Source of the DNA: a phage
DNA length: 64,000 nt
Direction: 5' to 3' (one strand)
Sequence record: OZ335962.1
Positions 13,933-52,766 of this stretch are shown one piece after another. The stretch's first letter is position 1. The number at the start of each line of letters is the position of its first letter. A program made the translations under genes and the position numbers. The notes beneath the pieces are model-generated. The model was not told the DNA's origin. It did not search any database and saw nothing but the letters and a program-made list of their open reading frames with translations.

Positions 13933-14151
13933 TTATTTCTCTAATATAAAATAAAAATCATCATCTGTTAAATGATACCGATAATTTAATTCTACACCGT
14001 TAGATTTAAAAGCGGTATCATACGGATTTTCTGGATCAATATCAATGTCAAGAGCTAAAACTTCCCTGAGATACATTTTAAGTAAATAGGGAATAGCTTC
14101 AACTTCAGGTATTTCTTCCAAGAATCCGGAGAGGTTAATCGTTAGCCTCAT
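13933..14151 (-). CDS. hypothetical protein
   Basis: 72-aa ORF directly downstream of gene 55. Confidence 0.5.
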
Positions 14152-14692
14152 ATAAAAAATCCAAACTAGGAGAATCGTCTACAACACTTTTCTTTTCAGC
14201 CCCCGGTGTTCTATAGGTTGATTCTTCGTAATGCGTCATTTTATCGTAGATGTCTTGAATAAAAGTTTCATCTACTAACGCAACCATATCGTCGTCACGA
14301 CTGTCATAGACATTGTGAACGAAGTAACTATATTTCTTTGCAACTTCCTTACGTTCTTTTTTAATACGTTGGACGAATGCATTAAAACAAGCTTGAGTTA
14401 TATATGCATGTGGGTTTTTATATTTCGTTTCATCAAAATTATGAAGCCCCTTAATAGAAGCTTCTATACCATCTGCAATCATTTCTTGTTTCCAAGATTG
14501 GGTGTATCCTGAAAAGTTGAAACGTTTAGATAAGCCTTCTGCGATAAGCATAATGGCTAATCCGATAGTATCATTCTGACGAACTACTTTATTTGGGTCT
14601 TTATTATTTGCTAATTCTGTTTTCCAATCAATAATAGCTTGTAAAAGCTCTTTATTGTTTACGTAATTATATTTAGGCTTAGTTTCTGACAT
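14135..14692 (-). CDS. 55: late-transcription sigma factor
   Basis: Matches recalled T4 gp55 N-terminus ([23 protein letters not shown]); ATG 14692 after AAGAGGTG RBS gives 185 aa; the track ORF starts at an upstream GTG. Confidence 0.9.
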
Positions 14693-14713
14693 TTTCACCT
14701 CTTAGCTCAATTC

Positions 14714-14748
14714 ATAGATCTATTATATCATAATATTTGAAGATCTAT
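14714..14748 (-). promoter_or_regulatory. gene 55 upstream element: TATAAT flanked by perfect 8-bp inverted repeat
   Basis: ATAGATCT (14714-14721) and AGATCTAT (14741-14748) flank 19 bp containing minus-strand TATAAT, just upstream of the gene 55 RBS. Confidence 0.45.
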
Positions 14749-14770
14749 CTTAAAGCATAGAGGGTATCAG

Positions 14771-15040
14771 TTATCTAAGTAAGCAGTATGCTTGGAATAC
14801 TTTCTCCATCATCTTTTTAAATTCATGAATATCTATATAATGACTAGTTAAATCAGCATGATATAAAAAGTCTAAAAACTTTTCATGTGTGCTAACATAT
14901 TCACTTTCATTTAATTCAGAAACATGGCTTTCCCAATATCCAACACCAGTCTTATTTGGGAAAAATGAAATTTTCATATATTGGTCAACATAGAAAATTC
15001 CATAATTTTCAATAGTAATAGAAATATTAATAAATTTCAT
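14771..15040 (-). CDS. hypothetical protein
   Basis: 89-aa ORF, 55.x-like early ORF block. Confidence 0.45.
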   Translation of the reverse strand: MKFINISITIENYGIFYVDQYMKISFFPNKTGVGYWESHVSELNESEYVSTHEKFLDFLYHADLTSHYIDIHEFKKMMEKVFQAYCLLR

Positions 15041-18011: not shown

Positions 18012-19825
18012 TGGTGTTTAACCCTATGCATGATTTCTTTATTTTTGCCGAGATTAAATCCGCGTTCGTTCGGATTTCCCAAATAACCACAAGTTCTTCT
18101 TATTGTGTTCATCTTTTTAGGATCAGTTTCTCCACAAATAGAACAAACAAATCCGTTTTCAGTAGGAGTCATTTCATGTGTACTTCCACACGTAAAACAT
18201 TTATCTACTGGCATATTAACACCAAAATAATCTAAATGTTGTGCAGCATAATCCCATACAGCCTCAAGACCTTTTAGGTTATTTTTCATATCAGGAAGTT
18301 CAACATAAGAAATGTGACCACCTGTCGCAATGAAATGATATGGTGCTTCTCGAGAAATCTTTTCAAACGGAGTAATATTTTCTTCTACTGAAACGTGGAA
18401 ACTATTAGTGTACCATCCTTTATCAGTAACATCTTTTACACTTCCATATTTCTCAGTATCAAGTTTACAGAAGCGATAGCACAGATTTTCAGCAGGTGTA
18501 GAATACAAACTAAAAGCAAAACCGGTTCTTTCAGTCCACTGTTTAAGACGAGCATTCATTTTAGTTAAAATTTCCTGTCCAATATCACGACCGACAAGAA
18601 TATTCAATTCGTGAATACCAATGTATCCTAAGGACACTGAACTTCTACCGTTTTTAAATAACTCAATTATGTCGTCATCAGGTTTAAGACGAACCCCGAA
18701 TGCACCTTCTTGGTAAAGAATAGGAGCAACAATCGCTTTAACTCCTTTTAAGGAACTAATTCTACACATCAAAGCTTCAAAACACAAATCCATTCGTTCA
18801 TTGAACAATTCGGCAAATTTCTGTTCATTGAATTGTGTTCCAATATAAGAATCTAACGCAATACGAGGAAGATTCAGTGTTACAACACCAAGATTATTAC
18901 GTCCATCAAGAATTTCATTACCAGTCGAATCTTTCCATACGCTTAAGAAACTACGGCAACCCATTGGAGAAACAGGAATAGATGAACCGGTGATAGCTTT
19001 ATTGTTCTTAGCTGAAATAATATCAGGATACATTCTTTTGCTTGCACACTCTAAAGCAAGCTGCTTAATATCATAGTTCGGATCATCTTTATAAAGATTA
19101 ACACCTTCTTCAACGAACATAACAAGTTTAGGGAAAATAGGAGTTATCCCATCGCGACCAAGGCCTTTAATACGATTTTTCAGAATTGCTTTCTGAATCA
19201 TTCGTTCAGTCCAGTCAGTTCCAGTACCAAATGTAATTGTTACAAAAGGCGTTTGTCCGTTTGAACTAAAGAGAGTATTTACTTCATATTCATAAGCTTG
19301 GAATGCATCGTATACGTCTTTTTCTGTTTTAGATTGGGCGTAATTCAACGCATCAGCGATTTGCCATTTTTCTGCATCCTCAATATGTTTTGCATAGGTG
19401 CGTTTAACATAAGGAGAAAGTACTTTATCTACATTCGCAAAAGTCGTTCCACCATATTGATGAGAAGCAACCTGCGCAGTAATTTGTGCCATAATTGCAG
19501 TAGCAACGCCGATTGATTTAGGAGTTTCAATCTGCGCATTACCGAGCTTAAATCCATTCTCAAGCATTCCTTTTAAATCTACTAAACAGCAATTAGTAAA
19601 TGGAAGAGCAGGTGAATAATCAATATCATGGAAATGAATAATTCCGCTTTCATGCGCTTTCATAATAAAAGACGGGACCATATTTTTGGCAATGTGTTTA
19701 GACACAATACCAGCCATAAGGTCCCGTTGAGTTGGAAAAACACGAGAATCTTTATTAGCATTCTCGTTTAAAAGGTCTTTATTAGTTTTATGAATCAATC
19801 CTTCAATTTCTTTTTCAATTGTCAT
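18008..19825 (-). CDS. nrdD: anaerobic ribonucleoside-triphosphate reductase
   Basis: 605 aa as in T4 NrdD; C-terminal glycyl-radical motif RTCGYLG and Zn ribbon CxxC..CxxC; the ORF is continuous, with no intron. Confidence 0.95.
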   Translation of the reverse strand: MTIEKEIEGLIHKTNKDLLNENANKDSRVFPTQRDLMAGIVSKHIAKNMVPSFIMKAHESGIIHFHDIDYSPALPFTNCCLVDLKGMLENGFKLGNAQIETPKSIGVATAIMAQITAQVASHQYGGTTFANVDKVLSPYVKRTYAKHIEDAEKWQIADALNYAQSKTEKDVYDAFQAYEYEVNTLFSSNGQTPFVTITFGTGTDWTERMIQKAILKNRIKGLGRDGITPIFPKLVMFVEEGVNLYKDDPNYDIKQLALECASKRMYPDIISAKNNKAITGSSIPVSPMGCRSFLSVWKDSTGNEILDGRNNLGVVTLNLPRIALDSYIGTQFNEQKFAELFNERMDLCFEALMCRISSLKGVKAIVAPILYQEGAFGVRLKPDDDIIELFKNGRSSVSLGYIGIHELNILVGRDIGQEILTKMNARLKQWTERTGFAFSLYSTPAENLCYRFCKLDTEKYGSVKDVTDKGWYTNSFHVSVEENITPFEKISREAPYHFIATGGHISYVELPDMKNNLKGLEAVWDYAAQHLDYFGVNMPVDKCFTCGSTHEMTPTENGFVCSICGETDPKKMNTIRRTCGYLGNPNERGFNLGKNKEIMHRVKHQ

Positions 19826-20295
19826 TTTAAACTCTTTCTAAGCTGCTTCTTAAATGAAGCTATTAATTGTGTTTTAGTGTCAGATTCATTATATTCAAAT
19901 CCTCTTTGAAGCATCTCAGCCATCATTTCCTCTTTTCCTAAACGAGAAAATTCCTTTGATTTATCTCCAACGAAGTTAGGGTGAATATTATTTTGGGTGT
20001 AATCGGATTTTAAATAAGTAAGTAAATTTTCTAACCATTCAAGATAATCAACGCCTTGTCCCTTTAAGCCAGAACGATTAAATTTGTGCTTCATTTGACC
20101 TTCCGCTGCATTGCAAAGATTACAGAGCAATCCACGTACCTTTCCTGCTTTTGGTCCATTTAATTCATGGTCATGGTCAAGGTGATTAGCTTGAACATCA
20201 GGATTTAGTTCTCGTTGGCAAATTAAGCATTTACCGTTTTGTGCGTTATAAAATTTTTGTTTTTCTTCTTTATATAATTTGCCAGTCAATAACAT
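19822..20295 (-). CDS. 49: endonuclease VII (Holliday junction resolvase)
   Basis: 157 aa, essentially identical to recalled T4 endonuclease VII (MLLTGKLYKEEKQKFY..CLICQRELNPDVQANHLDHDHELNG..). Confidence 0.96.
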   Translation of the reverse strand: MLLTGKLYKEEKQKFYNAQNGKCLICQRELNPDVQANHLDHDHELNGPKAGKVRGLLCNLCNAAEGQMKHKFNRSGLKGQGVDYLEWLENLLTYLKSDYTQNNIHPNFVGDKSKEFSRLGKEEMMAEMLQRGFEYNESDTKTQLIASFKKQLRKSLK

Positions 20296-26849: not shown

Positions 26850-27377
26850 TTATGCGAGTACCGTCTTTAACCGTTCTTCAAACTTCCGAAGAGTATTTTG
26901 GCGTTCAGCTCTTTGCTTTTTGTAAGTTTCAATACGCTCTGAAATGAGAGTGTATCGTTCATTTACTGATTCTTTCATAAAATCAGGAATTTCACGAGAA
27001 GCTTTAATCTCGTCAAATTTATCAATAACAGCTTGCTCTTCAGCAATTAAGTTATCATACATTAAAATATCTTTCTTGATGAACTCAATATCTTCTTGAG
27101 TTACACGAGATAATTTAGATGCTTTATCCTTTTTGTACTGTTCGTTAGTATCACGAGACCAGTGTAATGTACGATTTTTATTCGTATTTTTGTAAATTTC
27201 TACAATACCGATCTCATCAATAATAACGATCCAATTCCAACGGGATTTGTAAATTTGTCCTCCATCAACAGTGATTTCACCTCCGATTGAGATGTCATTA
27301 AAGAACTTGCTTTGTGCCTCAGATTTAAATTTACCATCGTTGTAATTTACCAAGTTGAAAATATCTTTAGCGTTCAT
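26850..27377 (-). CDS. hypothetical protein
   Basis: 175-aa ORF directly downstream of an early-type promoter. Confidence 0.55.
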   Translation of the reverse strand: MNAKDIFNLVNYNDGKFKSEAQSKFFNDISIGGEITVDGGQIYKSRWNWIVIIDEIGIVEIYKNTNKNRTLHWSRDTNEQYKKDKASKLSRVTQEDIEFIKKDILMYDNLIAEEQAVIDKFDEIKASREIPDFMKESVNERYTLISERIETYKKQRAERQNTLRKFEERLKTVLA

Positions 27378-27405: not shown

Positions 27406-27435
27406 ATAGTACCACAGAGGAACAGTCTTGTAAAC
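27406..27435 (-). promoter_or_regulatory. early-type sigma70 promoter
   Basis: GTTTAC -35, 18 bp, TGGTACTAT; upstream of ORF 26850-27377. Confidence 0.6.
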
Positions 27436-34512: not shown

Positions 34513-34698
34513 TTAAAGCGTATTCACATAAGCTATTAATTCGTTTTCTTTCTTATCAAACCGATCAGCAAATTCTTCTTGCTGATCGGGAGATAGCGGG
34601 CCGTATTCATCATAAAAGGTGTTTGCTTCTGTATGCTCATCTAGAAGTTCATGGATAAGCTCAAACAATTTATCTTTTTGTTCTTTACTCAGACTCAT
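34513..34698 (-). CDS. hypothetical protein
   Basis: 61-aa acidic ORF. Confidence 0.4.
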   Translation of the reverse strand: MSLSKEQKDKLFELIHELLDEHTEANTFYDEYGPLSPDQQEEFADRFDKKENELIAYVNTL

Positions 34699-36620: not shown

Positions 36621-37082
36621 TCATTGAGTTTTAATTACTGCTTTAGAAGCCTTTCCTGGTAAACGACGACTGTTGATAATTGCCATCCTGCATTGAAGCG
36701 ACGGGTCTTTGAACTTCGCATTAGGTTTACAAACTGTAAATCCAAGCCAAAGATTTCCATCTGTGATTTCTAAACGTCCAGGACGGTATTCAACCCCATC
36801 AATAAAATCCTCATCAATGTCAGGACGCGGAGGCATACTCAGGAATTCATTAACTTCTAAAACATGGTCTTTTATTTTGTGGAATAATTCAAAAACATAT
36901 GTCTCATCAATCTCCCGTTGAATTGCACGATCAAGAAGATGCTGAGAATATTTTAGATGAAACGATGAGACCCCTGCTGCTTTTGATGCCTCACGAATCT
37001 CATTGTTAATTTGACGAAACTCCGACTCAAAGTGACGACGAAGCTTATTTCGACGGATAAAAACTTCTGTGTTGATAGTCAT
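36621..37082 (-). CDS. regB: RegB site-specific endoribonuclease
   Basis: 153 aa as in T4 RegB; own early promoter with TGGTATAAT extended -10 directly upstream. Confidence 0.8.
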   Translation of the reverse strand: MTINTEVFIRRNKLRRHFESEFRQINNEIREASKAAGVSSFHLKYSQHLLDRAIQREIDETYVFELFHKIKDHVLEVNEFLSMPPRPDIDEDFIDGVEYRPGRLEITDGNLWLGFTVCKPNAKFKDPSLQCRMAIINSRRLPGKASKAVIKTQ

Positions 37083-37109: not shown

Positions 37110-37139
37110 ATTATACCACAGTCAAGAGGAAAAGTAAAC
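37110..37139 (-). promoter_or_regulatory. early promoter of regB
   Basis: GTTTAC -35, 18 bp, TGGTATAAT consensus extended -10, 28 bp upstream of regB ATG. Confidence 0.65.
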
Positions 37140-39287: not shown

Positions 39288-39761
39288 TTATTTGAATGAT
39301 TTGACGTACTGAATAGAGCCTTTGCTATTCACGAAAGCGATTTTACCATTTTTGTTATACATGGTAGCAGTACGCTGATAGCCATAAGTTTGCTTACCAG
39401 ATTGATAACCAACTAGTGCGAAATTATCTTCACCCATTTTATTCTGCTTAGCGCGGATACGTTCATGACCGTGCGCCATAAGAACCTTAGCATCACCAGT
39501 TGCAATGGATCTACGAGTTTTTTCATCTTCAACTGTATTAACAAAGTCGTCAAATGAATCAAATTTAGCATGAGATTTATTATACAGTTTTCCATCTACT
39601 GCATAATTATATCCCTGTACATCCATCTCAACTTCTGTACCATCATCTAATACAGCAGTGATTTTTTGACCTTTTTTAAATTTCAAAAGATCAGTAAAAG
39701 ATTCAGCAATAATTTGAGAATTAATAGCTGCTTCAGTGATAAATTCTTGATATGTTTTCAT
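39288..39761 (-). CDS. internal protein (capsid-targeted, CTS-bearing)
   Basis: 157 aa beginning MKTYQEFITEA, the capsid targeting sequence consensus of T4 internal proteins; adjacent to denV and e like the T4 ipII/ipIII locus. Confidence 0.7.
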   Translation of the reverse strand: MKTYQEFITEAAINSQIIAESFTDLLKFKKGQKITAVLDDGTEVEMDVQGYNYAVDGKLYNKSHAKFDSFDDFVNTVEDEKTRRSIATGDAKVLMAHGHERIRAKQNKMGEDNFALVGYQSGKQTYGYQRTATMYNKNGKIAFVNSKGSIQYVKSFK

Positions 39762-39770
39762 GTGTTTCCT

Positions 39771-40187
39771 TTAAATGTAAATATTTTTGCCGTAGTATTT
39801 ATACCAGTGTGGCTTCATTAAAATTTTTTCATCGAGTCGTTGTTGACTCAATTTAATAGCCGATTTGCATTGGTTATAATCATTTTTCCATTCTGCTGGA
39901 ATATCGCTGATGTCAGGAACTTCAGTATCTTTTATACTAAACCCACGTTTTAAGCATTCCGCTATAATGTCTGATTGACGCTTTCGCAAAAATTCTAACT
40001 TATCATAAAAGAACGTAACATGACCAGAACCTAAAATAAACTCGGAAGATATTTTAAAATCTTTAACCCGCTTACCATTTGCCACATGTTTACGAACTAT
40101 ACCAAAAACACGTGGCAATTCACGGTATTCTGCGATTAAATGTTGATCAGCAAGTTCAGATACTAAAGTCAAATTAATACGAGTCAT
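39771..40187 (-). CDS. denV: endonuclease V (pyrimidine dimer DNA glycosylase)
   Basis: 138 aa, matches recalled T4 endonuclease V ([33 protein letters not shown]..). Confidence 0.93.
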
Positions 40188-40200
40188 TTTATCCCTCCTA

Positions 40201-40241
40201 GAATTGTGAATATACTATCACAATTCTAGGAGAAAGTAAAC
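40201..40241 (-). promoter_or_regulatory. early promoter of denV with palindrome over the -10
   Basis: GTTTAC -35 (40236-40241), -10 TAGTAT; perfect 9-bp inverted repeat GAATTGTGA/TCACAATTC (40201-40209, 40218-40226) brackets the -10. Confidence 0.55.
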
Positions 40242-40245
40242 AACT

Positions 40246-40776
<531 letters not shown>

Positions 40777-45743: not shown

Positions 45744-45819
45744 TGGTCGAGGCAGTAGGGATCGAACCTACGACCCAGGACTTAGAAGGTCCTTGCTCTT
45801 CCTTCTGAGCTATGCCTCG
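45744..45819 (-). tRNA. tRNA-Arg (anticodon UCU)
   Basis: 76-nt cloverleaf folded by eye: anticodon loop CTTCTAA, T-loop TTCGATC, CCA encoded. Confidence 0.9.
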
Positions 45820-45823
45820 GATT

Positions 45824-45898
45824 TGGCGGACGTGATAGGATTCGAACCTATAACCAATCGCTTAACAGGCGATCGCTCTGCCATTGAGCTACACATCC
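45824..45898 (-). tRNA. tRNA-Asn (anticodon GUU)
   Basis: 75-nt cloverleaf: acceptor GGATGTG/CACGTCC, anticodon stem ATCGC/GCGAT, loop CTGTTAA, T-loop TTCGAAT, CCA encoded. Confidence 0.8.
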
Positions 45899-45902
45899 AA
45901 AT

Positions 45903-45989
45903 TGGTGGGGAGTGATGGAGTCGAACCACCCGAGTCGCAATGACAATGGATTTACAGTCCACACCGCTACCTCTACGGGATAACTCCCC
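45903..45989 (-). tRNA. tRNA-Tyr (anticodon GUA), class II
   Basis: 87 nt: acceptor GGGGAGT/ACTCCCC, anticodon loop CTGTAAA, long variable arm, T-loop TTCGACT, CCA encoded. Confidence 0.75.
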
Positions 45990-45998
45990 AAATTAATT

Positions 45999-46073
45999 TG
46001 GTGGCCCTGGGTGGAATTGAACCACCATCTGGCGATTATGAGTCGCTTGCTTGAACCTTCCAGCTACAGGGCC
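45999..46073 (-). tRNA. tRNA-Ile (anticodon CAU, AUA-reading type)
   Basis: Matches recalled T4 tRNA-Ile (GGCCCTGTAGCTGGAAGG...CTCATAATCG...). Confidence 0.9.
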
Positions 46074-46074
46074 T

Positions 46075-46150
46075 TGGTGCTGATTGACGGAATCGAACCG
46101 CCGACCTTCTCATTACAAGTGAGTTGCTCTACCTACTGAGCTAAATCAGC
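46075..46150 (-). tRNA. tRNA-Thr (anticodon UGU)
   Basis: Matches recalled T4 tRNA-Thr (GCTGATTTAGCTCAGTAGG...). Confidence 0.92.
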
Positions 46151-46155
46151 AAAAC

Positions 46156-46245
46156 TGGCGGAGGCGATAGGATTTGAACCTATGAGTCGCCGGAGCGACT
46201 GCCGGTTTTCAAGACCGGTGCATTAAACCACTCTGCCACGCCTCC
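46156..46245 (-). tRNA. tRNA-Ser (anticodon UGA), class II
   Basis: 90 nt with long variable arm; anticodon loop CTTGAAA. Confidence 0.88.
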
Positions 46246-46247
46246 AG

Positions 46248-46321
46248 TCTCCATACAAGGATTTGAACCTTGGACCTCCTGATCCCAAATCAGGCGCTCT
46301 ACCAAACTGAGCTACACGGAG
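46248..46321 (-). tRNA. tRNA-Pro (anticodon UGG)
   Basis: Matches recalled T4 tRNA-Pro; anticodon loop TTTGGGA; 3' CCA not encoded. Confidence 0.88.
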
Positions 46322-46331
46322 TAAATTAAAT

Positions 46332-46405
<74 letters not shown>

Positions 46406-46410
46406 AAATT

Positions 46411-46497
46411 TGGTGCGAGAAGTGGGACTCGAACCCACAAGGAAATCATTCCGCAGCATTTTAAGTGCTGTGCCTTTACCAATTTGACCATTCTCGC
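46411..46497 (-). tRNA. tRNA-Leu (anticodon UAA), class II
   Basis: Matches recalled T4 tRNA-Leu (GCGAGAATGGTCAAATTGG...). Confidence 0.92.
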
Positions 46498-46498
46498 G

Positions 46499-46571
46499 CT
46501 GGGAATAAAGGACTCGAACCTTTGCATCCTGGAATCAAAATCCAGTGCCTTACCAACTTGGCTAATTCCCA
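46499..46571 (-). tRNA. tRNA-Gln (anticodon UUG)
   Basis: Cloverleaf with anticodon loop TTTTGAT; abuts tRNA-Leu as a dimeric precursor; CCA not fully encoded. Confidence 0.88.
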
Positions 46572-48712: not shown

Positions 48713-48742
48713 ATAGTATCACTACCTCATCAGCATGTAAAC
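48713..48742 (-). promoter_or_regulatory. early-type sigma70 promoter of ip gene B
   Basis: GTTTAC -35, 18 bp, TGATACTAT; -10 embedded in inverted repeat GATGAGG...CCTCATC. Confidence 0.6.
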
Positions 48743-50851: not shown

Positions 50852-51676
50852 TTAGATATTTGACCAGACTTTGTTTGCAGAGAAACGTTTTCCTTTTGAA
50901 ACGAACTGCTGAAGTGGCATTAACACAACGTTCGCCCAGTCTTTCGGGGCGATTTCAACAAGGCTACCCATAATATTACCGGGTATATATGCCTTAATCA
51001 TTTGGTCTGCACCCCTAAATCCTTTCACTTGACTCCAATCAATTTTTAATTTCGTTTTATTAGTAATAGTAGGCGTATTTGAATATTGCTTTAAAAGCTC
51101 TTCTAGAAACTGTTGACGAGCTTTAGGTGGAATATAGTGCAAGTTCAATCCATACATTAAATTGTGTTTACCTAAACCGAGGTAAATTATCAAAGGAAAT
51201 TTATCCCAATAAGGAAGAGTTTCCTTGTGTTTAGCATCATAAGCAAAAGCATATATTCGTCCCGGCTGCGGGCGAACAACTTTGTGTCCTTTTACTTGCT
51301 TGATAGTTTCAGCAAACCACTTTCTGGTTTTATTATTAATTGCTGCGCCTTCATTACGAATTTTATCACGCAATGTTTGCCTGAATGAATTTATCATAAG
51401 CAGTTGTCTTTCTTGCTTATTGAGTTTATTCATTGGTTTTGATTCAAGCTTTTGAATCTTTTCAGCTGTTTTAATTCCTGAAGCATATTTTGACATTGCT
51501 GAAGTAAACGTAGAGTATTTGATTCCTCTTTCTTCGGCAAATTGCTTTCCTGTCATTCCTTTTGCTTTGGCCTTTTTGTATTCAAGACCTATCTGAATCC
51601 ATTTCTTTTCGTTTAATGATTGCTTAACCTTTGGAACTTGGGGAGTGCTTTCATTAATTATTTGAAAAATAGCCAT
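50852..51676 (-). CDS. 2: DNA end protector protein
   Basis: 274 aa as in T4 gp2; position between 3 and 4. Confidence 0.85.
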
Positions 51677-52128
51677 TATGCCCCCTTAAAGCCAAGAGCT
51701 CGTAATCCATCTTCTGTTAAAATTCTAAATTTTATTCCACGCTTTTCAGCTAAAGATTGCGCTGCTTTCCATTTGTCAGTATTAACGGAATATGTATAAA
51801 TTTCATTCATAAATCTTTTCTTCGCTGCAGTTGTTAGATGTGCCGGTTTAACTGGTGGTTGTGTTTCTTTTTTAGGTTTTATTTCAATAAAAAATTCTTG
51901 TCCAGAAGAATCTTTCATCCAAATATCCATGAAGTATCTACGTTTTTTCCCTTCTGCATTACAAAAATAAGGAATTACTGCTGTTTCACTACCCCATGCA
52001 ATAATTTCTGGATTTTTATCTAACCATTCAAAAAAGAATTTTTCCCAATTTGATCTATACGTAATTTTTTTAGGGTCACCTCTATATTTTGATATATTTT
52101 TAGGAACCCATTTTCCAGAATATGCCAT
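51676..52128 (-). CDS. 4: head completion protein
   Basis: 150 aa as in T4 gp4; divergent late promoters between 4 and 53. Confidence 0.85.
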
Positions 52129-52139
52129 TGGATTCTCCT

Positions 52140-52147
52140 TATAAATA
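52140..52147 (+). promoter_or_regulatory. late promoter (TATAAATA) of gene 53
   Basis: Exact TATAAATA 29 bp upstream of gene 53 ATG. Confidence 0.7.
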
Positions 52148-52154
52148 GATAATA

Positions 52155-52162
52155 TATTTATA
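52155..52162 (-). promoter_or_regulatory. late promoter (TATAAATA) of gene 4
   Basis: Minus-strand TATAAATA 27 bp upstream of gene 4 ATG; divergent with the gene 53 promoter. Confidence 0.65.
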
Positions 52163-52175
52163 AACAGGAGGGCCC

Positions 52176-52766
52176 ATGCTCTTTACATTTTTTGATCCGA
52201 TTGAATATGCGGCCAAAACGGTGAATAAAAACGCGCCGACTATTCCTATGACAGATATTTTTAGAAACTATAAAGACTATTTCAAACGTGCTCTTGCAGG
52301 ATACCGCTTACGCACTTATTATATTAAAGGTTCACCACGTCCGGAAGAATTAGCAAATGCTATATATGGAAATCCGCAGTTGTATTGGGTTTTATTGATG
52401 TGTAATGATAATTATGATCCGTATTATGGATGGATTACTTCGCAAGAAGCTGCTTATCAAGCATCTATACAAAAATACAAAAACGTAGGTGGAGACCAAA
52501 TAGTATATCATGTGAATGAGAACGGTGAAAAATTTTATAATTTAATATCATACGATGATAATCCATATGTTTGGTATGACAAAGGCGATAAAGCTAGAAA
52601 ATATCCTCAATATGAAGGAGCACTTGCTGCGGTCGATACGTATGAAGCTGCTGTTCTTGAAAATGAAAAACTTCGTCAAATAAAAATAATAGCAAAATCA
52701 GACATCAATTCATTTATGAACGACCTTATACGTATAATGGAGAAATCTTATGGAAATGATAAGTAA
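52176..52766 (+). CDS. 53: baseplate wedge subunit
   Basis: 196 aa as in T4 gp53; TATAAATA late promoter about 30 bp upstream. Confidence 0.88.
   Translation: MLFTFFDPIEYAAKTVNKNAPTIPMTDIFRNYKDYFKRALAGYRLRTYYIKGSPRPEELANAIYGNPQLYWVLLMCNDNYDPYYGWITSQEAAYQASIQKYKNVGGDQIVYHVNENGEKFYNLISYDDNPYVWYDKGDKARKYPQYEGALAAVDTYEAAVLENEKLRQIKIIAKSDINSFMNDLIRIMEKSYGNDK

Follow-up and report, generated by a model that had tools for sequence, protein, structure and literature searches.

Inverted repeats at the denV and gene 55 promoters of a T4-like phage as candidate cores of RNA hairpins that would hide Shine–Dalgarno sequences in read-through transcripts

Two perfect inverted repeats, one upstream of denV (endonuclease V) and the other upstream of gene 55 (late sigma factor gp55), are considered here in a 64-kb segment of a Tequatrovirus (T4-like) genome (sequence record OZ335962.1), hereafter the window; the genes surrounding both repeats are on the minus strand. 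Among the described systems closest to them are the promoter-early stem-loop (PeSL) cassettes of T4-type phages (Arbiol, 2010, PMC2839356; Comeau, 2014, PMC4122927), the latter paper adding the T-even pair PST/T4. PeSL-like elements with T4 early promoters and AT-rich stems are reported to have been first noticed at IP loci, in the e/ip/denV neighbourhood (Repoila, 1994, as cited in later work). The PeSL stem has been interpreted as a terminator or attenuator and as a recombination site, and the words “translation” and “ribosome” have zero occurrences each in PMC2839356. Promoter-middle stem-loop (PmSL) elements have been described in the hyperplastic regions of the distant schizo-T-even Vibrio phage nt-1, with no involvement of the Shine–Dalgarno (SD) sequence reported (PMC4122927).

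Structures that do sequester the SD, and are relieved by an internal late promoter, are known for e, soc, 49, and I-TevI, as well as for I-TevII, I-TevIII, Aeh1 mobE, and possibly segB (PMC3014915). The same paper is silent on denV and gene 55, and treats regB as a gene with a typical early promoter and self-cleavage by RegB at its own SD. In our literature search, which covered the older T4 literature only partly, we found no paper giving denV, 55, or regB this role. Finally, classical operators of the lac and lambda type overlap the –10 element and are bound by dimeric repressors; to our knowledge, the denV and gene 55 dyads have no cognate repressor.

We propose, with a probability of about 0.6, that the two dyads are the cores of RNA hairpins which would hide the SDs of denV and gene 55 in read-through transcripts, while the mRNA made from each gene’s own promoter would be free of the hairpin. 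Structures were predicted by thermodynamic folding of the sense strand as RNA (minimum free energy, MFE, and centroid). The main statistic is the free energy of SD opening, with 60 shuffles of the pre-start segment as the control; the probability of the SD being paired was dropped, as composition-preserving shuffles already reach 0.5–0.8, and the opening energy was used instead.

The initial annotation had noted a perfect 9-bp inverted repeat around the –10 element of denV (39771–40187, minus strand; 138 aa, ATG at 40185–40187). This repeat is present, with perfect complementarity between GAATTGTGA at 40201–40209 and TCACAATTC at 40218–40226 as read along the window, but it was under-called: it is in fact a 15-bp perfect repeat (40218–40232 and 40195–40209, with an 8-nt loop) that reaches into the SD. 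No perfect short-loop inverted repeat of the window is longer. When such repeats were counted in 40 dinucleotide shuffles of the window, repeats of at least 15 bp were found in 0 of 40, and the mean count of repeats of at least 12 bp was 0.3.

The element is intergenic, situated in the 58-nt spacer between the stop codon (40246–40248) of gene e (lysozyme; 40246–40740, minus strand), which directly precedes denV, and the SD and ATG of denV. On the minus strand, the –35 hexamer GTTTAC of an early promoter (40236–40241) is followed by the 5′ arm of the hairpin, CTCCTAGAATTGTGA (40218–40232), containing the anti-SD CTCC (40229–40232) and the TG of the extended –10 (40219–40220); by the loop TAGTATAT (40210–40217), which holds the –10 hexamer TAGTAT (40212–40217) with this TG before it; and by the 3′ arm TCACAATTCTAGGAG (40195–40209), which holds the predicted transcription start at about 40205 and most of the SD GGAGG (40194–40198). 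The –35 and –10 hexamers are separated by 18 nt, and the SD, GGAG(G), stands 7 nt before the ATG. The promoter, TTTACT-N17-TAGTAT, fits the consensus of T-even PeSL promoters, TTTACW-N17-TAYWAT (PMC4122927), except for G at the third position of the –10 hexamer, and an AT-rich region, TATAAAAATCTATAAAG, lies upstream of it. The equivalent e–denV promoter of phage fPS-90 is annotated as a predicted early promoter. The predicted start at about 40205 is the seventh nucleotide after the –10 hexamer.

The sense RNA of the denV region is predicted to fold at –33 kcal/mol (z = –7.2) into an 18-bp helix and an outer helix that extends over the AUG. In the MFE structures the 3′ side of this putative outer helix (40182–40190, minus strand) pairs with 40238–40245 and takes in the denV AUG; the pairing is weak, rich in AU and GU. 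The predicted cost of opening the SD is 14.8 kcal/mol in read-through RNA (z = 5.5) versus 3.6 kcal/mol in RNA from the proximal start. Given how initiation is known to depend on the stability of structure, opening costs of 8–15 kcal/mol should decrease initiation by orders of magnitude. Since the 5′ arm lies wholly upstream of the –10 hexamer, transcripts from the denV promoter would not contain it.

At gene 55 (14135–14692, minus strand; 185 aa, ATG at 14690–14692) the element is also intergenic, in the 78-nt spacer after the upstream open reading frame (ORF) ending at 14771. The previously reported perfect 8-bp repeat near the TATAAT is indeed there (ATAGATCT at 14714–14721 and AGATCTAT at 14741–14748 as read along the window, with 19 nt between them and the loop ending in TGATATAAT), but taken alone it is at the level of chance, as the window contains 44 repeats of exactly 8 bp, this one included, and the shuffles yield approximately 37 repeats of at least 8 bp, approximately 27 of them of exactly 8 bp. 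Both promoter assignments of the initial annotation are reasonable, given the prediction in fPS-90 and the mapping of the gene 55 promoter in T4: P55 has been identified by experiment as a middle promoter of T4, starting at T4 position 40180 (PMC2988021, Table 1). This start is the seventh nucleotide after TATAAT, the bracketed A of AGATCT[A]T, and falls inside the 3′ arm, so that P55 transcripts would be devoid of any 5′ arm.

In the order of transcription on the minus strand, the gene 55 leader comprises a 5′ outer arm CTGATACCCTCT (14759–14770, found in both the MFE and the centroid structures), with the anti-SD CCTCT at 14759–14763, which is also present in T4; a conserved MotA-box-like TGCTTTA (14751–14757), at a non-canonical spacing of 23 nt upstream of TATAAT; the dyad 5′ arm ATAGATCT (14741–14748), at positions –33 to –26 of P55, which covaries with the 3′ arm in relatives; the extended –10 of P55 (14722–14730: TG at 14729–14730, A, and TATAAT at 14722–14727), invariant in an alignment of 12 sequences; the dyad 3′ arm AGATCTAT (14714–14721), which abuts TATAAT and contains the A at 14715 homologous to the T4 P55 start; and the SD AGAGG (14698–14702), predicted to pair with CCTCT in read-through RNA. 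In the predicted fold the 8-bp stem is nested in the GCUU/GAGC and CCUCU/AGAGG (SD) helices, at –24.7 kcal/mol (z = –3.1). Opening the SD is predicted to cost 8.2 kcal/mol in read-through RNA (z = 2.9, equalled in 1 of 60 shuffles) versus 1.2 kcal/mol in RNA from the P55 start.

The upstream motif of P55 deserves a separate mention. In nearly all gp55 relatives, (A/G)TGCTTTAA is found 22–23 nt ahead of the P55 TATAAT; relative to the mapped T4 start this is –42 to –36, one helical turn beyond the 12 ± 1 that is canonical for a MotA box. The dyad’s variable 5′ arm takes up the canonical slot, and either of the two may be the functional MotA box.

The architecture is conserved in relatives despite different stems. 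For denV we compared 22 distinct T4-like upstream regions (the window, T4, and loci from IMG/VR). GTTTAC, a –10 element, and a hairpin including the SD are present in all 22 regions, with about ten families of stem sequences; the stems of individual lineages are CTCCTAGAATTGTGA, CTCCTGTAG (T4), CCTCCAAG, CTCCGTTTG, GTCCTCC, and AGTGTTCTC, and the SD is paired throughout. The predicted probability that the SD is unpaired is approximately zero for 20 of the 22 regions when the RNA is read-through, and 0.2–0.8 when it begins at the predicted start. The mean cost of SD opening (n = 22) is 11.6 kcal/mol for read-through RNA, 1.8 for RNA that begins at the proximal start, and 3.6 when the pre-start segment is shuffled; in 19 of 22 regions the read-through value exceeds all 60 shuffles. 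Cognate arms pair at –14.7 kcal/mol, compared to –9.4 for non-cognate and –6.5 for shuffled arms. In “type B” relatives (L006, L013, L015, L017, L020, L023) the 5′ arm is located between the –10 element and approximately –1: the –10 is left unbracketed, yet the arm stops short of the predicted start.

T4, with which a comparison had been suggested, keeps the architecture at both denV and gene 55. T4 denV has the same arrangement built of other sequence (GTTTAC, TCTCCTGTAG, TGATACTAT, CTACAGGAGA), and the gene 55 dyad of T4, ATAGGTCT/AGATCTAT, contains a G·U pair in RNA that is a G·T mismatch in DNA. The T4 promoter following e drives ipIII and has the inner dyad of the window, AATTGTGA/TCACAATT, with no SD in the stem. 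The same promoter and stem drive denV in the window and ipIII in T4: the gene order in the window (39288–40740) is e, denV, and then a 157-aa internal virion protein, in T4 it is e, ipIII, ipII, denV, and the difference falls exactly at this element.

Closer relatives display single substitutions in the denV stem. The best match of the e–denV stretch is Escherichia phage a48 (99.1%), among 609 matching phage records in all; the e–denV junction is found in 323 GenBank phage records with at least 80% coverage, but identity reaches 99% in only 23 of these, so that the perfect 15-bp form is probably a minority haplotype. At one pair of the 9-bp dyad, the window has AATTG/CAATT (U-A), wV7 has AATTG/CAGTT (U·G), and ECO4 and KNP1 have AACTG/CAGTT (C-G), while the anti-SD of KNP1 is CUUC, with a C-to-U change that yields a G·U pair. 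The sampled e–denV variants all keep a predicted SD opening cost of 7.8–13.6 kcal/mol. As the substitutions pass through G·U pairs of the sense strand without loss of pairing, they point to an RNA rather than a DNA or protein-binding site. In some relatives (JLBYU22, A2, PinkRuby, and Ge15) the e–denV–ip stretch carries approximately 335 bp extra, with an additional hypothetical gene.

For gene 55, 34 distinct upstream regions were compared. TGnTATAAT and the upstream TGCTTTAA are conserved, with the anti-SD in the segment between or before them, and the inner stems are lineage-specific: ATAGGTCT/AGACCTAT, AGGTCC/GGACCT, ACCTATCGCT/AGCGATGAGGT, CCTCTCGCTTC/GAAGCGAAGAGG, CCCTTCC/GGAAGAGG, and also ATCGCT/AGCGAT and CTCGCTTC/GAAGCGAA. 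The mean SD opening cost (n = 34) is 6.5 kcal/mol in read-through RNA, 1.3 from the P55 start, and 3.0 with a shuffled pre-start segment, the T4 value being 9.9; about 14 of 34 regions are matched by at most 1 of 60 shuffles. Within the dyad, A-U, G-C, and G·U alternate at one pair, and U-A and C-G at another. RNAalifold run on a MAFFT alignment of 12 gene 55 leaders yields a weak consensus of –1.8 kcal/mol, with double compensatory changes in three of nine pairs; the consensus is weak because MAFFT aligns the leaders by the promoter position, and the register of the stem is shifted by 1 nt in the L097 group. A duplex z-score confined to –35..+1 missed the anti-SD of the window and T4, which is located at –47 to –43. 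A search of IMG/VR haplotypes for the P55 dyad yielded nine loci, none beyond the comparison set. One haplotype, L083 (L189, IMG/VR 3300030021_000012), combines the window-type 5′ half ATAGATCT with the 3′ half AGACCTAT of the L082 type and, judging by its sequence, looks like a recombinant within the hairpin loop.

In a scan of 101 putative genes of the window, the top-ranked hairpins belong to the ORF starting at 27377, gene 55, e, 49, denV, and regB. According to PHROGs, the ORF at 19822–20295 encodes endonuclease VII (gene 49), and the one at 36621–37082, an endoribonuclease (RegB). As e and 49 are published examples (PMC3014915), the scan recovers known cases. At regB (36621–37082, minus strand; –10 at 37115) GTTTAC is followed by the 5′ arm TTCCTCTTGACTG, TGGTATAAT in the loop, and the 3′ arm CAGTTAAGAGGAG with the GGAG SD; Mosigvirus has this design too, built on another stem, CTCTAGTTG/CAACTAGAG.

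The strict pattern GTTTAC-N17/18-TGnTAnnnT retrieves 14 promoters, all on the minus strand, seven of which have stems of –16 kcal/mol or stronger spanning the –10, compared to 0.9% of background 52-nt windows with comparable stems; a generic sigma-70 scan is blind to T4-type promoters with the GTTTAC –35 and uninformative on them. Among the seven strong-stem promoters, the 3′ arm holds the SD in three, those of denV, regB, and the ORF at 27377, and does not in the others. The third of these ORFs (26850–27377, minus strand; phrog_2274, function unknown; –10 at 27411) has a 15-bp promoter-spanning hairpin, CTGTTCCTCTGTGGT/ACTACGGAGGAACAG, which holds its SD. A 41-nt near-identical copy of this promoter half occurs with the –10 at 2429, upstream of the ORF starting at 2389; it lacks a complementary 3′ arm, and therefore recombination inside the loop is suggested. 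Early promoters with the –10 at 48718, 48087, 32104, and 28852 (minus strand) have stems of –16 to –19 kcal/mol that span or overlap the –10 and exclude the SD, and in several of these the 3′ arm is the conserved start region TATTACCCTATC.

The proposed mechanism is as follows. The hairpin would form only in RNA coming from upstream, that is RNA passing through gene e in the case of denV, and early transcripts extended through 55.1 in the case of gene 55. In such RNA the upstream pyrimidine anti-SD (CUCC at denV, CCUCU at gene 55) would pair with the gene’s own SD and block the 30S subunit; as the 5′ arm is transcribed before the SD, the hairpin could close as the SD emerges. The promoter inside the hairpin (early for denV, the middle P55 for gene 55) would initiate within or after the 3′ arm, leaving the SD free and the mRNA translated, and each gene would be translated essentially only from the mRNA of its own promoter. 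Synthesis of denV would then be limited to the early phase, even though the neighbouring gene e is heavily transcribed late, and gp55 would be delayed until P55 fires. The same stem may also attenuate upstream transcripts or protect their 3′ ends and serve as a recombination site, as proposed for PeSL. A possible side effect is that GGAG SDs would be open to RegB only in proximal transcripts.

The presence and abundance of read-through RNA are presumed for this phage, and the effect on translation is likewise a predicted one. Since early transcripts also extend into middle genes (PMC2988021), RNA reading across P55 is to be expected. In T4 omics data, gene 55 and e belong to the early-RNA/late-protein class, and denV and regB, to the early-RNA/early-protein class; this is consistent with the mechanism but not specific to it.

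Several considerations weigh against this proposal. The early-RNA/late-protein class is broad and points to no particular mechanism. The structural evidence consists entirely of thermodynamic predictions, and G-rich SDs pair easily in silico, as seen from the shuffled pairing probabilities of 0.5–0.8. The geometry with a promoter inside the hairpin is partly forced, because in short intergenic regions any SD hairpin would overlap the promoter. At gene 55 the excess of opening energy is modest in about half of the relatives and absent in two of them (L104 and L106), and the L083 haplotype has an A·C mismatch in the dyad. Finally, occlusion of the SD is not the sole role of such stems, since many early promoters of the window, as well as T4 ipIII, have stems free of the SD.

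The last point leads to the alternative that survives best, although we consider it unlikely: the elements would be generic PeSL stem-loops that attenuate, terminate, or 3′-protect upstream transcripts and provide homology for recombination, with the SD pairing being incidental to short leaders. The abundance of strong –10-spanning stems at strict early promoters (seven of 14 versus the 0.9% background), several of them excluding the SD, agrees with it, and so does the SD-free inner stem in T4 ipIII and in locus L137. PeSL stems are reported to decrease downstream lacZ expression like a strong terminator and to be situated at indel junctions (PMC2839356, PMC4122927); the gene-order difference between the window and T4 falls exactly at the denV element, the 2429 and 27411 cassettes share 41 nt with a matching 3′ arm in one only, and L083 resembles a recombinant within the loop. 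On the other hand, the terminator scan at the denV and gene 55 dyads found no T-run after either hairpin, the following sequences being GGATAAAATG and GAAAATG, and no terminator-like site, and on this ground an intrinsic (Rho-independent) terminator was rejected. Moreover, the SD is included in all denV lineages, whatever the inner stem and whether or not the –10 is bracketed, and the gene 55 promoter is of the middle type and lies in a conserved region, unlike an early promoter of hyperplastic sequence. A generic PeSL role and SD sequestration are compatible with each other.

A more restricted objection, which we regard as improbable, is that the 8-bp dyad of gene 55 is fortuitous, the selected feature there being only the outer anti-SD/SD pairing or the promoter elements, or none, and that the denV dyad alone is meaningful. 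The chance-level frequency of 8-bp repeats with a 19-nt loop in this AT-rich window (44 observed, about 27 expected), the palindromic nature of AGATCT itself, the mismatches in T4 and L083 (A·C), the weak RNAalifold consensus of –1.8 kcal/mol, and the position of the 5′ arm in the expected MotA-box slot all fit this interpretation. It is contradicted by the recurrence of an inner stem at this place across lineages with different sequences, by the double compensatory changes in three of nine consensus pairs, and by the z-score of –3.1 for the fold of the whole region.

The initial annotation had put first an operator of a dimeric repressor centered at the –10, and had offered a cruciform or an RNA hairpin affecting initiation as other options. 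Action at the DNA level, either as an operator of a phage or host repressor (e.g., a CRP-like TGTGA-N8-TCACA site at denV) or as a cruciform modulating the promoter, now seems very improbable. The symmetry is centered on or beside the –10, TGTGA-N8-TCACA is retained in all close variants examined downstream of e, and the mechanism of early-promoter shut-off in T4 has been described as incompletely understood (PMC3014915). However, the two dyads are unrelated in sequence and have no half-site in common. The advised search for further copies yielded none: in the window the full dyad occurs once, half-sites of both dyads are not over-represented elsewhere, being at or below the chance level. The half-site is not conserved at denV, gene 55, and regB orthologues, orthologous promoters having unrelated stems. 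The position of the dyad relative to the –10 is not fixed either, as in the type B relatives the stem comes after the –10, and in the L097 group the gene 55 register is 1 nt off. The G·U-type intermediates (wV7, KNP1, T4 P55, and L105) would be mismatches in DNA, and on the sense strand they are a signature of RNA rather than of a cruciform or a protein–DNA contact. The CRP-like site was set aside, as TGTGA belongs to the extended –10 context of the early promoters themselves, mostly GTG(A/G)TA in the window; moreover, the canonical CRP spacing is 6 nt, not 8. Thus, of the initial options the RNA hairpin was right in kind, with translation initiation as the likely target in place of transcription initiation, given the SD in the 3′ arm. 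That the –10-spanning dyads at about half of the early promoters act at the DNA level through structure, irrespective of sequence (as a cruciform, a non-template hairpin in the open complex, or a target of a structure-specific phage protein) and aid early shut-off, with denV as an extreme example, is a suggestion to which we would give hardly any weight.

Several further features of the window lie outside these promoters. A palindrome at 52139–52163, TTATAAATA-gataata-TATTTATAA, is composed of two divergent late-promoter motifs between the genes at 51676–52128 (minus strand; head-closure, gp4-like) and 52176–52766 (plus strand; baseplate-wedge, gp53-like), and both flanking SDs are predicted to be paired in hairpins containing TATAAATA. 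The second-longest perfect inverted repeat of the window, of 11 bp, is CCGATCAGCAA-attcttc-TTGCTGATCGG at 34561–34589. Search of the whole window against Rfam 15 at the gathering threshold yielded ten tRNAs only, and neither dyad matches a curated RNA family; the tRNA genes form a cluster at 45747–46571 on the minus strand, one of them (45908–45987) barely exceeding the threshold with 30.2 bits. The tRNA counts given in the literature are eight for T4 and nine for PST.

Compared to known systems, the dyads share with classical operators the symmetry at the core promoter, and differ from them in the lack of half-site conservation across orthologues and of a regulon of repeated sites in the window, and in substitutions that preserve RNA pairing rather than a recognition sequence in DNA. 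Gene 55 resembles PmSL elements in having a middle-type promoter (a TGCTT Mot box and a –10) with a stem-loop, but its TGCTTTA is 23 nt from the –10, compared to the canonical 12 ± 1. At denV the likeness is to PeSL cassettes: the element is intergenic, has a T-even early promoter, and carries an AT-rich stem placed between –35 and –10 or over the –10; moreover, as with PeSL, it is repeated at many early promoters and sits at a gene-order difference between close relatives. Gene 55 departs from this pattern with its MotA-dependent middle promoter P55 in place of a T-even early one. Other differences concern the arms, as the 3′ arm at denV and gene 55 holds the SD and has no T-run, and the stems of RB49 are of the polyG...polyC type with a G-rich 5′ arm, whereas the 5′ arm at denV and gene 55 is a pyrimidine anti-SD.

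With e, soc, 49, and I-TevI the two loci share an SD and/or AUG that is helical in long transcripts, and an internal promoter whose RNA lacks the 5′ strand and is translated, as predicted here. In the known cases the internal promoter is late (TATAAATA), and the hairpin prevents a late protein from being translated early; at denV and regB the internal promoter is early and the hairpin would block late or read-through translation, and at gene 55 it is the middle P55. The late promoter TATAAATA is absent from the loops of denV and gene 55, so that these are variants and not the classical late-gene form. Most likely, the denV and gene 55 elements combine known kinds, a PeSL cassette and a promoter-embedded SD-sequestering hairpin. 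If the proposal is true, denV and regB, with their early promoters, and gene 55, with its middle one, would extend the design of a promoter inside an SD hairpin beyond the late genes e, soc, 49, and I-TevI. Stems of the PeSL type would gain a post-transcriptional role, with a cassette translated only from its own transcripts, which would help to explain its shuffling between contexts. Gene 55 would have a simple timer, the late sigma factor being made not from early read-through RNA but only after the MotA-dependent P55 fires. This would be a refinement of T4 biology and not a new principle, uniting in one element the stem-loop promoter of PeSL cassettes and the SD hairpin of the late genes.

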